Source of the DNA: Microcystis aeruginosa NIES-2549
Lineage (GTDB): Bacteria; Cyanobacteriota; Cyanobacteriia; Cyanobacteriales; Microcystaceae
Assembly: GCF_000981785.2 (NCBI RefSeq)
Contig: NZ_CP011304.1
Coordinates: forward strand, 1,530,001 to 1,562,000
DNA: 32,000 nucleotides
Reading direction: 5' to 3'
The notes beneath the pieces were generated by a model. That model searched no databases, was not told where the DNA came from, and was given only the letters and a program-made list of their open reading frames with translations. This document shows positions 22,712 through 31,420 of this stretch, one piece after another (positions within the stretch are counted from its first letter, which is position 1; every line of letters begins with the position of its first letter). The position numbers and the translations under genes are program-made.

Positions 22712-24157
22712 TTATCCCCTGTTAGAAACTACGTCAATGGCACAGGTTTCCAGACGAGAAAAAAGAATTATGCCACCACCCACACCCCAGACAAGGGTGG
22801 GAAGATGTCCCCAGGGTGCTTTGAGAGAGAAAGTAATTTGATCGTAGTATAACCACGTGTTATTAACTCGCCAACCTACTTTTGACCCAAAATCGTTCCA
22901 TTTTTGTTGATCATAATTGCCGCTTCCTCCCAAACTTTCATAGATTCTTTTCTGAACAGATATACCTAATTTTCCCTGACTATATTTTAACCAGAGTTGA
23001 TTGATAGTGGCTAAATCTTCACAGGGAAAGTTATCTATGTTTTCTATCTTAAGATATTTTTCTTTAGTTCGATCGGCAACTTTTAAAAATAGATTAGCTG
23101 TTTCTTGATCTGCCTCTTGCCATTTTTCTTGCGCTAAGAAATCGCGTAGGTTAGTGTAATCAATAGCCCTAGCACTTTTGAGGTTAATTTCCTCCCTGGT
23201 GGCGGCTGGAAAAACTGGCAAAACCGTTTCTTGAATTGTGGCCTGTGATCGGGGTTTTGGCGGAATCACTGCGGCTAATTTTACTGCTAACTCTTGCAGG
23301 ACTTCCCCGGCTGATTGATAACGTTTTTTGGTGCCAAATTCAATTAATTTATCTAAAATTTCACCTAATTCAACACTAACAGGATTATTAATCAGGTGCT
23401 GTCTCCATACCCATTCATGTTCACTCACATCGAATAATTCAAAGGGAGATACTCCCGTCAATAAATAGATACAAGTGACTCCCAAACTATATAAATCACT
23501 GCTATTAATCGCTTTGCCATTGCCTTGTTCTGGGGCGATATATCCCGCCGAACCGATCACTGTTCCTGTCAGGGAAAGATTAGGAATGTTCATAAATTTA
23601 GAGGCACCAAAATCAACTAAAATTATTTTATTATCGCTGCTTCTTCTAATTATATTAGCTGGTTTAATATCCCGATGAATGACTCTTTTAGTATGGATAA
23701 AATCAAGAATTGGCAAAATTTCTAATAAAAGATATTTGATCTTTTCTTCATTGAAAACTCCTTCGCTTTGTAATTCTTGTTCTAGGTTTTGTCCCTCAAT
23801 ATATTCTTGCACAAGATATTGCCGCCCATCATTGCCGGTAAAATAGGCATAGAGGGAGGGAATTTGTGGGTGTTGACCGAGATTATCTAAACTAATCGCT
23901 TCTTCTTTAAATAATTCCGCCGCTTTCTTGAGAGCATTACTGCCTTGAGCGCTAGGAAAAAATTGTTTAATCACACAATAAGGTTTAGAAGGTTTATCCT
24001 CATCAATTGCTTGAAAAGTTTTACCAAAACCTCCTTGACCAATTAATTTTATAGCACGATAACGATCTTTGAGTAATAATTGAAAGCGACATTTTTGACA
24101 GAATTTATCTGTAGGATCATTGTTATGAAGACAATCAGGATTAAGACATAAACTCAT
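22712..24157 (-). CDS. Ser/Thr protein kinase with an N-terminal zinc ribbon and a C-terminal GUN4-like domain
   Basis: CLNPDC...CQKC ribbon. Kinase motifs GQGGFGKTF, HRDIKPANII, DFG and GSAGYIAPE. The C-terminal DYTNLRDFLAQEKWQEADQET...NFPCEDLATINQLWLKYSQGKLGISVQKRIY resembles GUN4. Confidence 0.85.
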   Translation of the reverse strand: MSLCLNPDCLHNNDPTDKFCQKCRFQLLLKDRYRAIKLIGQGGFGKTFQAIDEDKPSKPYCVIKQFFPSAQGSNALKKAAELFKEEAISLDNLGQHPQIPSLYAYFTGNDGRQYLVQEYIEGQNLEQELQSEGVFNEEKIKYLLLEILPILDFIHTKRVIHRDIKPANIIRRSSDNKIILVDFGASKFMNIPNLSLTGTVIGSAGYIAPEQGNGKAINSSDLYSLGVTCIYLLTGVSPFELFDVSEHEWVWRQHLINNPVSVELGEILDKLIEFGTKKRYQSAGEVLQELAVKLAAVIPPKPRSQATIQETVLPVFPAATREEINLKSARAIDYTNLRDFLAQEKWQEADQETANLFLKVADRTKEKYLKIENIDNFPCEDLATINQLWLKYSQGKLGISVQKRIYESLGGSGNYDQQKWNDFGSKVGWRVNNTWLYYDQITFSLKAPWGHLPTLVWGVGGGIILFSRLETCAIDVVSNRG

Positions 24158-27059: not shown

Positions 27060-28160
27060 ATGGCTATTTGTATTCCCGTTAATTTACCCGATCGCTCCTA
27101 TAATATTCTGATCGAGAAGGGCAGTTTAGCTAATCTCGGTGGAGAAATGAGCCAGTTAAGCTTAGGTAAAAAGGTTTTATTGGTTTCTAATCCCGAAATT
27201 TTTGACTATTACGGGCAGATAGCCGTTAATTCCCTAGAAAAAGCGGGCTTTGTCGTTTTTACTCATCTGATCCCCGCTGGCGAAAATTATAAAACCCTCG
27301 ATGCGATCGCCCAAGTTTATGATAGCGCCCTCGCTCACCGGCTGGAACGTTCCTCGACTATGGTTGCCCTCGGTGGTGGTGTAATCGGTGATATGACGGG
27401 ATTTGCGGCAGCCACATGGTTACGGGGCGTTAATTTTGTCCAGGTTCCCACCACTCTGTTAGCCATGGTGGACGCTTCCATCGGGGGTAAAACCGGTGTT
27501 AATCATCCCCAGGGCAAAAATCTGATCGGGGCGTTTTATCAACCGAAATTAGTTCTGATTGATCCTAGCGTGCTTAAAAGCCTACCCGTGCGAGAATTTC
27601 GCGCTGGAATGGCAGAAGTGATTAAATACGGTGTAATTTGGGATGCTGAGTTATTTCAACAGTTAGAAGACTCGGACAATTTAGCCAGTTTTTCTCAGAT
27701 CGATGGCGAGCTATTGCAAACAATTATTACAAAGTCTTGCCAAGCTAAAGCAGATGTGGTATGCACAGACGAAAAAGAAGCGGGTTTGCGGGCGATCTTA
27801 AACTATGGTCACACGATCGCCCACGGCATTGAAAGTTTAACGGGATATACTAGCGTTAACCACGGGGAAGCGGTGGCCATGGGGATGGTGGCGGCAGGAG
27901 CGATCGCTGTTAAACTGGGAATGTGGACCGCCGGGGAAAATCAACGTCAAACCGATTTAATCGAAAAAGCCGCCTTAGAAACCCGTATGCCGCCTTTAAA
28001 TGCCGATGAGATGGTAAATGCTCTCACTGCCGATAAAAAGGTTAAAGATGGCCAAGTTAGATTTATTTTACCAACGGCAATCGGCCAAGTCACCATTAGC
28101 GATCGAGTCACCCCCACCCTGGTGCGGGAGGTGTTATCACCAACCGAATCCGGGCAGTAA
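27060..28160 (+). CDS. aroB: 3-dehydroquinate synthase
   Basis: 366 aa with [25 protein letters not shown] and LNYGHTIAH motifs. Confidence 0.95.
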
Positions 28161-29511: not shown

Positions 29512-30696
29512 ATGAAAATTGTTTCTATTAAAATAAAAAACTATCGTATGTTTAAAAACATACACATAAGAGATATTCCCCCTTTTTGTGTGATTATTGG
29601 AGCTAACGGCACGGGAAAATCTACTCTATTTGATATTTTTGGGTTTCTGCGAGATGCCCTCAAAAACAACATTCGCCAAGCCTTACAAATTCGCGGCGGT
29701 TATAGAGAAATTATCACTAGAGGCCAAGAACAGGAAGATATTGAAATCGAGCTGCAATTTCGCATGAAAATCTTAGATACAGAACGTCTGGTTACTTATA
29801 TACTTATAATTGGACAAAACAATAATCGCCCCATTATCAAACGCGAAATACTTCGCTATAAAAGGGGTGAACACGGTAAACCTTTTCATTTTTTAGATTT
29901 TCAACTTGGTCAAGGATATGCTATCACCAACGAAGAAGATTTTAGTAAACCAGATAAAGAACTCGATCGAGAAGAACAACAGCTAGAATCTAACGACATA
30001 CTAGCGATCAAGGGATTAGGACAATTTCAACGTTTTAAAGCCGCTACAGCCTTTCGTTCTCTGATTGAAAATTGGCACGTTTCTGACTTTCATATTAGCG
30101 AAGCTAGAGGAAGTAAAGAAATATCTTACGCTGAACACTTATCCCCCACTGGCGACAATATAGCTACAGTTGCTCAATATATTTATCAACAATATCCCGA
30201 AATTTTTCAGCAAATTCTCGAAAAAATGAAACAACGAGTTCCGGGTATTTCCTCTGTGGAAGCCAAAGAAACCGAAGACGGTCGCTTGATTTTACGTTTT
30301 CAAGATCAGGCCTTTAAAGACCCTTTTATTGATCGCTATGTTTCTGACGGGACTATGAAAATGTTCGCCTATTTAATATTACTATTCGATCCCAATCCTC
30401 ATCCCCTACTCTGTGTCGAAGAACCAGAAAACCAACTTTATCCTACTTTATTAAAAGAACTAGCCGAAGAATTCGCCCACTATAGCTATCGGGGGGGTCA
30501 GGTATTTGTTTCTAGCCACTCCCCCGATTTTCTCAATGCGGTTCCACTAGCTAGTATTTTCTGGCTAATTAAATCCCAAGGTATCACCCAAATCCATAGG
30601 GCTACCGATAGCGAAATCATCAAAAACTTAGTAGCGGAAGGCGATTTACCCGGCTATCTTTGGAATCAAGGCTGGTTTGAAGGAGTAGCACCATAA
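29512..30696 (+). CDS. ABC/SMC-type (AAA_15/AAA_21-like) ATPase
   Basis: Walker A GANGTGKST, signature-like VSDGTMKMFAYL, Walker B LLCVEEPENQLYP, and H-loop VFVSSHSPDF. The stop overlaps the start of the next gene (ATAATG). Confidence 0.85.
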   Translation: MKIVSIKIKNYRMFKNIHIRDIPPFCVIIGANGTGKSTLFDIFGFLRDALKNNIRQALQIRGGYREIITRGQEQEDIEIELQFRMKILDTERLVTYILIIGQNNNRPIIKREILRYKRGEHGKPFHFLDFQLGQGYAITNEEDFSKPDKELDREEQQLESNDILAIKGLGQFQRFKAATAFRSLIENWHVSDFHISEARGSKEISYAEHLSPTGDNIATVAQYIYQQYPEIFQQILEKMKQRVPGISSVEAKETEDGRLILRFQDQAFKDPFIDRYVSDGTMKMFAYLILLFDPNPHPLLCVEEPENQLYPTLLKELAEEFAHYSYRGGQVFVSSHSPDFLNAVPLASIFWLIKSQGITQIHRATDSEIIKNLVAEGDLPGYLWNQGWFEGVAP

Positions 30697-31286
30697 TGAA
30701 CTATGATATCGTATTTTTGCTAGAAGAGTCATCTATAGAAAATGTGTTAAACGAACTTTTGCCTAAACTTATTCCCCCAGAAATAAGGTATAAATGTATT
30801 AGTCATCAAGGCAAACAAGACCTAGCCAAATCTATTCCTATAAAACTCAAAGCTTTCAAGAAATCTAGTCCCAATACCAAATTTATTATTGTTCACGATC
30901 AGGATTCCCACGACTGTCAAAAACTCAAAAAAGACCTAGGGCAAATTTGTCAAAATTCCAGTGATGCTCAAGTCTTAATTAGGATTATTTGCCATGAATT
31001 AGAATCTTGATTTCTGGGAGATTTAGCAGCGGTGGCCAAGGCCTATAATTTAAATAGTCTCGGTCAAAAACAAAATAAAAGTAAATACAGAGAACCAGAC
31101 CGGCTTAACTCGGCCAAACAAGAATTAAAAAAGCTAGTGAAAGAGTATTATGCAGGAACCCACTCTAAACAGATTGCCCCTCATCTTTCCCTAACTGAAA
31201 ATAAATCGCGTAGTTTTCAAACTTTCATCCAAGGTATCAAAAATGTTGTGGAAATGATACAACGGCCCAATCCGAACCCGAACTAA
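30696..31286 (+). pseudogene. DUF4276-like (Toprim-like) gene interrupted by a single in-frame TGA
   Basis: The 591-nt frame reads MNYDIVFLLEESSIENV...FIIVHDQDSHDC...LIRIICHELES*FLGDLAAVAKAY...SFQTFIQGIK. The TGA at 31008-31010 sits where the family motif E(L/A)E(A/S)WFL has Trp, consistent with TGG to TGA. The track ORFs 30696..31010 and 31032..31286 are in the same frame. Confidence 0.7.
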
Positions 31287-31420
31287 AATAGACCTCGACC
31301 TAATATAATTAAAAGCCTATAAACTCCTAACCAGGGGGATAATTTCTCTGGGTGTCATTTTTAGTCCCAAAAATATTCCCCCCGGCAGAGGGGAGGGGAA
31401 AGTGGGGAAAAACCGCTAGA

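Follow-up and report, generated by a model that had tools for sequence, protein, structure and literature searches.

Near the end of the window (the whole stretch of 32,000 nucleotides of Microcystis aeruginosa NIES-2549 that was analysed here), a gene for an ABC-type ATPase is followed by a second frame that is broken by a TGA triplet at the position of a tryptophan. The original prediction had described this pair as OLD/PARIS-like, as an uncharacterised member of that architectural class, and as either freshly inactivated or expressed at a low level by read-through of the TGA. What this gene pair is, and what the TGA does to it, are the questions that the locus raises. Our analysis indicates that it is very probably a vertically inherited chromosomal copy of the candidate system HEC-01, whose effector was recently killed by a nonsense mutation at Trp105, as one among many knock-outs of this cassette in Microcystis.

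Identity of the gene pair

The features of the locus are listed in Table 1. Walker A, Walker B, H-loop and signature-like motifs were located in the sequence of the 394-aa ATPase (ORF1). The TAA of this gene (30694-30696) shares one base with the ATG of the second gene (ORF2, 30696-30698), giving the overlap TAATG, and an AAGGAG motif is present at 30680-30685, 10 nt 5' of the ORF2 start; the translational coupling that had been read from this junction was thus verified, as was the interruption of the ORF2 frame by a single TGA.

Table 1. Positions in the window of the features of the HEC-01 locus
Feature	Position	Strand	Remarks
HEC-01 ABC-type ATPase gene (ORF1)	29512..30696	+	394 aa, uninterrupted; protein exactly WP_046661611.1
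Walker A GANGTGKS, ATPase residues 30-37	29599..29622	+	
Signature-like SDGT, ATPase residues 278-281	30343..30354	+	putative ABC signature, called from its placement ahead of Walker B
Walker B / D-loop region LLCVEEPE, ATPase residues 299-306	30406..30429	+	
H-loop SSHSP, ATPase residues 334-338	30511..30525	+	
Translational-coupling junction, AAGGAG Shine-Dalgarno-like motif and TAATG	30680..30698	+	read from sequence
DUF4276 frame (ORF2)	30696-31286	+	197 codons counting the stop; single internal stop
DUF4276 gene, 5' part, codons 1-104	30696..31007	+	in RefSeq the 104-aa WP_235614818.1
Premature TGA, codon 105 (TGG>TGA; G>A at 31010)	31008..31010	+	context ELES*FLGD
DUF4276 gene, 3' part, codons 106-196 and TAA	31011..31286	+	now untranslated
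Terminator-like hairpin and T-rich tail	31331..31351	+	consensus scan only; 45 nt past the ORF2 stop

ORF1 matched the PADLOC HEC-01 profile PDLC04144 over its whole length (4.9e-204, 676 bits; residues 1-394 on profile positions 1-394 of 395) and the HEC-01 profile PDLC04182 with 419 bits, besides Pfam AAA_21 (1e-28) and AAA_15 (1e-22). When ORF2 was searched as a joined protein, with a tryptophan restored at the stop as the original prediction had proposed, it matched Pfam DUF4276 end to end (E = 2e-16, reaching residue 181) and the PADLOC HEC-01 profile PDLC04143 (5.4e-66, 220 bits; residues 4-187 on positions 3-186 of 190). As both proteins gave full-length matches to PADLOC HEC-01 profiles, also a search that had been suggested, the pair falls within a candidate defence family that is already in the catalogue; what Microcystis carries here is a copy of HEC-01, a two-gene candidate anti-phage system, rather than a novel one. 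The description as an uncharacterised member could not be maintained, since matches of 676 and 220 bits place the pair in a family that has already been described and tested experimentally.

HEC-01, for Hma-embedded candidate 01, is contained in PADLOC-DB v2 (Payne et al., bioRxiv 10.1101/2024.01.29.577857), where it was described as an ABC ATPase plus a TOPRIM protein with a conserved metal-binding site; a representative assayed in the same work showed no detectable phage protection. With a cold-seep representative, on the other hand, E. coli B was protected from one or more of the phages T4, T5 and T7. The anti-phage activity of HEC-01 is thus weakly documented, the published results being mixed. 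Like the described system, the locus under study is a two-gene cassette of an ABC-type AAA_21 ATPase and a DUF4276/TOPRIM-like protein, encoded on the same strand and overlapping at 30694-30698. In other species, the ATPase gene is located directly 5' of the DUF4276 gene in 78 of 80 loci, and a TAATG or TGATG overlap is kept in most of the 80. The copy in the window differs from HEC-01 in that the pair is not intact, the effector gene carrying the premature in-frame stop at codon 105, and in that it is found alone amid housekeeping genes, outside any Hma or restriction-modification (R-M) system.

Relationship with other ATPase-Toprim systems

The likeness to OLD and PARIS held in part: an ABC-type ATPase is coupled to a DUF4276 protein with an E...DxD layout, but the resemblance is one of analogy, as there is no AriB match, no GajB and no fusion of ATPase and Toprim. 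PARIS also combines a separate ABC ATPase (AAA_15/21) with a small partner of the Toprim superfamily; however, this partner, AriB, is a DUF4435 protein of ~35 kDa, whereas ORF2 encodes a DUF4276 protein of ~196 aa without any AriB or DUF4435 match in PADLOC or Pfam at E <= 0.1, so that membership in PARIS was ruled out. The AriA profiles matched ORF1 with 7e-29 and 3e-24, far below the HEC-01 match, reflecting generic AAA_15/21 similarity. P2 Old, the other class 1 OLD proteins and Gabija GajA likewise join an ABC ATPase with Toprim chemistry, and ORF1 gave weak matches to GajA and ATPase-Toprim profiles in PADLOC. These systems, however, use a single fused polypeptide, and Gabija needs in addition the GajB helicase; membership was discarded because ATPase and partner are encoded by two separate ORFs and there is no UvrD-like gene among the neighbours of the pair (aroB, a FAD oxidoreductase gene, DUF4278 and FHA). 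MADS contains an AAA_21-type ATPase (Mad3) and a DUF4276 homologue (Mad4), and both matched the pair weakly, with NCBIfam scores far under the cut-off (MAD3, 124 vs 420 bits; MAD4, 19 vs 160 bits); these scores, together with the lack of a methyltransferase or other mad genes among the neighbours, ruled out this assignment too. PrrC and RloAB-type modules are found within type I R-M operons, PrrC being embedded in EcoprrI (background in 10.1101/2024.01.29.577857), as are relatives of our cassette between hsdS and hsdR in several cyanobacteria; nevertheless, their effectors are the PrrC anticodon-nuclease domain or RloB instead of DUF4276, and the copy in the window has no adjoining R-M genes.

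By analogy with PARIS, in which the ATPase acts as a scaffold and sensor that releases the nuclease, and with other systems of ABC ATPase and Toprim protein, a plausible common logic can be proposed for the window pair. The ATPase would probably hold and control the DUF4276 nuclease, and a phage trigger sensed by the ATPase would lead to the release or activation of the nuclease.

That ORF2 is Toprim-like was sustained at the level of conserved residues, though the fold was not recovered by Foldseek or hhalign. The acidic residues are located in LLEES at residues 8-12 (E10/E11, 30723-30728) and HDQDS at residues 67-71 (D68-Q-D70, 30897-30905), 57-58 residues apart, close to the 55 that had been estimated, and E10/E11, D68 and D70 are invariant in homologues. 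In an AF2 model of the full-length protein (pLDDT 77, pTM 0.76), strand 1 comprises residues 5-9 and strand 3 residues 62-69, which puts acidic residues at the strand ends, after strand 1 and after strand 3, as in the Toprim layout. A Foldseek search of this model against PDB and BFVD gave nothing at E <= 0.001, with generic three-layer alpha/beta matches, all at E > 0.03; its ten best BFVD matches include a RloB-like protein (E = 0.099) and the DnaG TOPRIM domain (E = 0.14). A model of the 104-aa fragment (pLDDT 65) retrieved from PDB generic matches of the same kind only (E > 0.03). The comparison of the DUF4276 profile with P2 Old by hhalign, made with a shallow profile (Neff 1.7) and a single-sequence template, yielded a probability of 0.6% and no Toprim alignment. 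Nothing was added by searching PDB sequences with a profile made from the DUF4276 alignment, which gave no relevant match, or by scanning 30 homologues against Pfam at E <= 10, which revealed no weak Toprim, RloB or DUF4435 matches. In the literature DUF4276 is placed in the Toprim superfamily and is a homologue of Mad4. Two papers and the conserved E...DxD layout are thus the basis of the putative Toprim assignment of the protein.

The nonsense mutation at Trp105

Trp105 is part of the motif HELESWFLGDL and is invariant across 25-40 homologues, in agreement with the conserved tryptophan that had been postulated at the TGA. The 20 loci L001-L020 all have TGG at codon 105, and ORF2 is open to ~196 aa in nine of the ten full-length Microcystis loci L021-L030, that of L030 departing only past residue 187. 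Alignment of orthologues, the means proposed to decide whether TGG is ancestral, revealed TGG in all 26 other distinct Microcystis haplotypes, the TGA allele being present in one of 27. The nearest allele, L001/L003, shows 7 differences in 1775 nt and encodes an identical ATPase protein; the stop aside, ORF2 has a dN of 0 with respect to L001, and its 3' part carries no non-synonymous change. Since all other haplotypes have TGG and the nearest relative shows no other amino-acid change, we infer that the stop is a private and very recent TGG>TGA nonsense mutation, and the gene an ordinary fresh pseudogene. The option of fresh inactivation is thereby favored, and that of low-level read-through is left unsupported, as only a single assembly has the TGA and this triplet serves as an ordinary stop in the window, where it terminates three other ORFs, including the conserved FAD-oxidoreductase gene. 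An alternative genetic code or selenocysteine was ruled out, because TGA ends conserved neighbour genes and every relative has TGG (Trp). The G>A transition cuts the effector to 104 of its 196 residues, and since the conserved C-terminal half of the DUF4276 protein is thereby lost, the system is most likely dead.

A leaky stop would lead to a different outcome: tRNA-Trp would sometimes decode the UGA and restore the ancestral residue, so that a little wild-type DUF4276 protein would be made and the system kept in a low-level or attenuated form. That tRNA-Trp can decode UGA as a near-cognate codon is established for bacteria, the 3' half of the DUF4276 gene is undamaged, and neither the ATPase gene nor the coupling junction carries a lesion. 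However, a mutation as recent as this one would leave the gene just as free of further decay, basal read-through is normally well below a few percent, and in conserved neighbour genes TGA is a true stop. As the TGA is private to one genome, there is no sign of a recoding site that is selected or programmed; moreover, the insertions, frameshifts and start-codon loss of other strains cannot be read through, implying that plain loss of the cassette is tolerated. We therefore consider a leaky stop quite unlikely. Similarly improbable, in our opinion, is the proposal that cost or autotoxicity underlies the recurrent, preferential knock-out of the effector and that UGA at a Trp codon represents a reversible, attenuated "standby" of a defence system, in which tRNA-Trp, by rare read-through, would yield a protein identical to the wild type and the gene would be repaired by one A>G transition.

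Two further readings concern the allele itself and its product. No contig on record was found to encode the exact 104-aa product, so the TGA allele rests on a single assembly, and the metagenome contigs encoding an identical ATPase protein all have TGG, as would be expected if the genome really had TGG, the system were intact and the TGA were a sequencing or assembly error. Such an error is nonetheless very unlikely: the change is a substitution rather than a homopolymer indel, the chromosome that contains it (4.29 Mb) is finished, the truncated protein of 104 aa is annotated in RefSeq, and independent nonsense and other lesions are common in the Microcystis cassette, which makes a genuine lesion unremarkable. 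As for the product, the catalytic-type acidic residues are all encoded 5' of the stop, and an 84-aa ORF with a GTG start at 31032 spans most of the 3' part, so that the 104-aa N-terminal part (strands 1-4) could be active alone or as a split protein together with the 84-aa product. We find this scarcely credible, given that the truncation removes the invariant residues W105, F106, L107, G108, R132, P134, D135, K141, E143, Y151, Y152, H156, S171, S173 and F174, that the AF2 model of the fragment is poor with respect to that of the full-length protein (pLDDT 65 vs 77, pTM 0.53 vs 0.76, strand 4 unformed), and that no homologue is naturally split at the position of codon 105.

Recurrent loss in Microcystis and context in other species

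The order aroB, FAD-oxidoreductase gene, pair, DUF4278 is conserved across Microcystis, and the neighbours are of the housekeeping type that the original prediction had recognized. At least 11 of the 27 distinct haplotypes carry independent, different lesions in the pair, although part of these come from MAGs or long-read assemblies and may be assembly errors, for example the 1-bp deletion in L021. The lesions comprise nonsense mutations (W105*, Q83* and Q86*, and E230* in the ATPase), loss of the ORF2 start codon, insertions of a MITE and of an IS630-like element, frameshifts and a deletion. The genes that flank the pair are intact throughout the Microcystis loci, that of the FAD oxidoreductase being broken in none of 19 haplotypes (Fisher p = 0.001). 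Eight lesions affect the DUF4276 gene and four the ATPase gene, even though the latter is twice as long; the idea of an effector-only decay was nevertheless softened, since the ATPase is also broken in 4-5 haplotypes. The TGA allele is one of many independent knock-outs of the cassette across Microcystis. At the same time, the dN/dS values of 0.20 for the ATPase and 0.25 for the DUF4276 protein indicate that the intact copies are under purifying selection (dN/dS about 0.2). Such recurrent loss is typically seen where a defence module is dispensable or costly and selection on it fluctuates.

Outside Microcystis, the order hsdM-hsdS-(Uma2)-pair-hsdR of a type I R-M operon was found in 7-8 cyanobacterial loci, matching the logic of "guilt by embedding" by which HEC-01 was discovered. 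Enrichment in defence islands, on which the original prediction had made its inference depend, was thus seen only in part: type I R-M or Uma2 genes directly adjoin about one fifth of the non-Microcystis loci but not most of them, and housekeeping genes rather than defence islands surround the pair in Microcystis and in most of the other species. This context could also suggest that the pair is not primarily anti-phage, but a toxin-like, selfish addiction module or a housekeeping factor for nucleic acids, whose loss is unrelated to immunity. In support of this idea, the ATPase shows unusually high conservation, with 78-83% amino-acid identity between cyanobacterial orders, the pair has a fixed chromosomal site amid housekeeping genes in Microcystis, it lies between prfB and lysS in seven Methylococcales genomes, and the representative assayed by Payne et al. 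gave no detectable phage protection. However, the location between hsdS and hsdR, the homology of the pair to MADS Mad3/Mad4 and to Menshen modules, and the protection conferred by the other HEC-01 representative all speak for defence, and an essential housekeeping role is hard to reconcile with a cassette that was lost independently so often (11 of 27 haplotypes). A primary function other than defence is therefore unlikely.

In summary, the discovery value of this locus is limited, as the cassette family was already catalogued and the stop is an ordinary recent pseudogenising mutation. Annotation pipelines should label it as a HEC-01 pseudogene and not as two hypothetical ORFs. Of modest value, too, the repeated embedding of relatives between hsdS and hsdR in other cyanobacteria provides independent support, by "guilt by embedding", for the defence role of the poorly validated HEC-01. 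Furthermore, the intact alleles and the independent knock-outs found at a single syntenic site in Microcystis form a natural series, which could be used for tests of cyanophage protection and of fitness cost.

The window gene pair and its family

The original prediction described an ATPase with a complete set of ABC motifs, coupled to a 197-codon frame broken once by TGA, and we recovered all of these features. The four ATPase motifs were found in ORF1, whose TAA overlaps the ATG of ORF2 as TAATG, with an AAGGAG 10 nt upstream of that ATG; the only interruption of the second frame is the TGA at 31008-31010 (codon 105, context ELES*FLGD). ORF1 matched Pfam AAA_21 (1e-28) and AAA_15, while ORF2, joined with W at the stop, covered the whole DUF4276 model (2e-16).

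Positions of the gene pair, its motifs and related features (L numbers denote related loci in other genomes)
Feature	Gene	Position	Strand	Basis
ABC-type ATPase, 394 aa, intact	ORF1	29512-30696	+	ORF listing
DUF4276 frame, 197 codons to TAA at 31284-31286	ORF2	start 30696	+	reading-frame scan
Walker A GANGTGKS	ORF1	residues 30-37		motif inspection
Signature-like SDGT	ORF1	residues 278-281		motif inspection
Walker B LLCVEEPE	ORF1	residues 299-306		motif inspection
H-loop SSHSP	ORF1	residues 334-338		motif inspection
Acidic residues LLEES and HDQDS	ORF2	E10/E11 and D68-Q-D70		motif inspection
Terminator-like hairpin	3' of ORF2	31331-31351		sequence scan
Q86* (CAA>TAA)	ORF2	L012
Q83* (CAA>TAA)	ORF2	L020
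Start codon ATG>AGG	ORF2	L026
96-bp element with terminal inverted repeats ATAGCGGT...ACCGCTAT, near codon 95	ORF2	L014:1745-1840
MITE of ~134 bp, near codon 171	ORF2	L011:3159-3294
C-terminus altered after residue 187 (candidate lesion)	ORF2	L030
ORF2 deletion/frameshift and ATPase frameshift	both	L017
ATPase and 5' part of ORF2 replaced	both	L076
1-bp deletion	ATPase	L021
IS630-like insertion, 1.08 kb, 357-aa transposase, codon ~12	ATPase	L022:7767-8847
E230* (GAA>TAA)	ATPase	L029
Pair between prfB and lysS (Methylococcales)	both	L083-L085, L092, L093, L096, L099

Against PADLOC-DB, both proteins aligned end to end with profiles of HEC-01, a two-gene candidate anti-phage system: the ATPase with PDLC04144 (676 bits) and the DUF4276 protein with PDLC04143 (220 bits). 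Other systems in that database scored far lower (AriA 100 bits, mad3 85, AbiLi 80, GajA 55), ORF2 had no AriB match there, and the NCBIfam models MAD3 (124 bits, cut-off 420) and MAD4 (19 bits, cut-off 160) stayed below threshold. In the description by Payne et al., HEC-01 pairs an ABC ATPase with a TOPRIM protein; it was discovered embedded in Hma systems, and its metal-binding site is reported as conserved relative to BpOLD. It did not protect against the phages assayed there, and in a later study one representative was reported to shield E. coli B from at least one of the phages T4, T5 and T7. Because of these profile matches and published descriptions, the window pair is, judged by its sequence, a member of a catalogued and partly tested candidate family, and not the uncharacterised one first proposed. 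The PADLOC names of the two matching profiles look swapped: PDLC04144 is labelled 'HEC-01B' and PDLC04143 'HEC-01A', whereas every other HEC-01A profile matches the ATPase and every other HEC-01B profile the DUF4276 protein.

A separate paper places DUF4276 (a Mad4 homologue) and RloB in the Toprim superfamily, with E and DxD conserved, and the E...DxD layout predicted for ORF2 is indeed present. The AF2 model was built on P0001, the closest full-length homologue (93% identical), and reached pLDDT 77 and pTM 0.76. It opens with four strands alternating with helices (beta-alpha, four times), ahead of a helical C-terminal half; E10/E11 close strand 1 (residues 5-9), while strand 3 (residues 62-69) ends with the DxD, a modelled layout that is compatible with Toprim. 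Foldseek searches of PDB and BFVD with this model gave no match at E <= 0.001, the ten best BFVD hits including an RloB-like protein (E = 0.099) and a DnaG TOPRIM domain (E = 0.14). The model of the 104-aa fragment was poorer (pLDDT 65) and its Foldseek search equally uninformative, a DUF4276 profile search of PDB sequences returned nothing relevant, and hhalign against P2 Old gave a probability of 0.6% with a shallow DUF4276 profile (Neff 1.7). The Toprim fold is supported by the motif layout and the literature, our own structure and profile comparisons adding no confirmation.

By analogy with PARIS, the ATPase would act as a sensor or scaffold controlling the DUF4276 Toprim nuclease. The AriA hexamer of PARIS holds AriB and frees it on sensing a trigger, after which AriB cleaves tRNA-Lys; this logic of an ATPase holding a nuclease is that of AriA/AriB, carried over to HEC-01. 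The PARIS paper assigns MADS3-4, AbiL and DUF4276-bearing systems to the same AAA15/21 ATPase radiation.

Genomic settings of the cassette

The genes around the window pair are of housekeeping type, as originally described. Microcystis loci keep the order aroB, FAD-dependent oxidoreductase (-), ATPase, DUF4276, DUF4278 (-) and FHA, and the window also carries nearby genes for a GH57/DUF3536 protein, a PLP-dependent enzyme, a CAP-domain protein, a 3'-5' exonuclease, a sugar transferase, a metallophosphoesterase and a protein kinase fused to GUN4. The last of these, at 22712-24157 (-), encodes 481 aa with a Ser/Thr protein-kinase domain and a C-terminal GUN4-like (porphyrin-binding) domain. The genes aroB (+, ends 28160) and FAD-dependent oxidoreductase (-, ends 28137) converge with a 24-bp overlap of their 3' ends (28137-28160), kept in other Microcystis loci. 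In the Microcystis loci L009, L010, L015, L020, L023 and L029 only the last ~41 aroB codons (residues 326-366), the part overlapping the 3' end of the oxidoreductase gene, adjoin the latter, with the complete aroB elsewhere or off the contig; these remnants show that rearrangements have repeatedly broken the chromosome immediately upstream of the locus.

A one-genome-per-species scan gave 80 loci, 78 of them with the ATPase directly upstream of DUF4276, mostly overlapping as TAATG or TGATG. Across cyanobacterial orders the ATPase is 78-83% identical and the DUF4276 protein 62-72% (one disrupted copy 59%); remoter copies (50-67%) occur in Methylococcales, Oceanobacter, Endozoicomonas and Paenibacillus. 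The ATPase range spans Nostocales, Oscillatoriales, Leptolyngbya and Pseudanabaena against Microcystis (L031-L080), unusually high for a defence gene, and this points either to strong constraint on the cassette or to its recent spread by horizontal transfer.

The expectation of enrichment in defence islands held in part. In 7-8 loci hsdR lies directly downstream, with hsdM and hsdS (often with a Uma2-family protein) upstream, giving the type I R-M order hsdM - hsdS - (Uma2) - ATPase - DUF4276 - hsdR (L031, L032, L033, L040, L042, L056, L088, L094), mostly with 12-77 nt between DUF4276 and hsdR; this 'guilt by embedding' lends the cassette some support for a defence role. General enrichment was not found: neighbours outside Microcystis are heterogeneous and, beyond the R-M, Uma2 and prfB/lysS settings, unrelated housekeeping genes. 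In 9-11 loci the next gene upstream, on the same strand, encodes the Uma2-family protein (~198 aa, PADLOC candidate PDC-S03). Seven Methylococcales genomes carry the pair between prfB (349-aa PCRF/RF-1 protein) and lysS (499-aa class II lysyl-tRNA synthetase), with all four genes in the same orientation, at positions ~7.7-12.1 kb in each locus; this conserved non-defence context is curious since the analogous PARIS effector cleaves tRNA-Lys. A Methylobacter contig carries a second AAA_21-type ATPase (L084:13651-14733, -), 23% identical to the window ATPase and ~3 kb downstream of the pair, and two neighbour proteins in the locus set match PADLOC mad3; different ABC-ATPase modules may thus cluster together.

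Origin and effect of the TGA codon

W105 was predicted to be a conserved Trp, and alignments of 25, 30 and 40 homologues, drawn from many orders of cyanobacteria, show it to be invariant (motif HELESWFLGDL). The window ATPase is exactly WP_046661611.1, encoded on an M. aeruginosa chromosome of 4.29 Mb, and the truncated 104-aa ORF2 product is WP_235614818.1. The identical ATPase protein is also encoded on three metagenome contigs, where the DUF4276 gene after it is intact (196 aa); the nearest, L001/L003, differ from the window at 7/1775 nt, including A/G at 31010, and ORF2 has dN = 0 against L001 apart from the stop. A pattern scan open to either allele found TGG in all 14 further Microcystis contigs. 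In the species-representative Microcystis genomes L021-L029 codon 105 is read through to a normal stop at 196 aa, and L030 likewise has no stop there, its C-terminus being replaced after residue 187. After removal of duplicates TGA occupies codon 105 in 1/27 distinct haplotypes, the window only, in line with an ancestral TGG. TGA also terminates three other window ORFs; one of them is the FAD-oxidoreductase gene, and every locus conserves its 378-aa product. Together, these sequence comparisons indicate that the standard genetic code applies and that the window TGA is a nonsense mutation (TGG>TGA), derived, private and very recent, which bears out the proposed fresh inactivation.

The truncated protein is probably inactive, because it loses ~90 residues with many invariant positions and its N-terminal fragment models poorly. 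Conservation of the lost half also makes it unlikely that a truncated or split DUF4276 protein is functional. The originally suggested alternative of TGA read-through, in which leaky UGA decoding by tRNA-Trp would regenerate the wild-type protein, is improbable. As a selected state it finds no support: the allele is private to the window, and in other strains some lesions are of kinds that no read-through could repair. An error in base calling is likewise unlikely, the change being a substitution in a finished genome. That the cassette has a non-defence role is a minority possibility, favoured by the thin experimental support for HEC-01 and set against the R-M embedding.

Recurrent decay in Microcystis

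The cassette is clearly disrupted in 11/27 haplotypes, the window counted, although several of these lesions were read in MAGs or long-read assemblies, and errors may be among them. The FAD-oxidoreductase gene is disrupted in 0/19 haplotypes (Fisher p = 0.001 vs the cassette), and with DUF4278 added the control gives 0/~40. The shorter effector gene has 8 lesions and the ATPase gene 4 (binomial p = 0.02); despite this excess the ATPase is not spared. Copies of the ~134-bp MITE, 94-95% identical, lie at other positions (L021:10907-11040, L022:4975-5107). Across copies, dN/dS is 0.20 (ATPase) and 0.25 (DUF4276), which implies purifying selection. The picture is of a cassette that is functional but dispensable or costly in Microcystis and repeatedly lost, the window allele being one more case.

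In summary, the locus carries a system of a known kind, HEC-01, which a nonsense mutation at an invariant Trp has recently turned into a pseudogene. This is ordinary in itself, and mild interest attaches only to the way in which the syntenic cassette has decayed repeatedly and independently across Microcystis.
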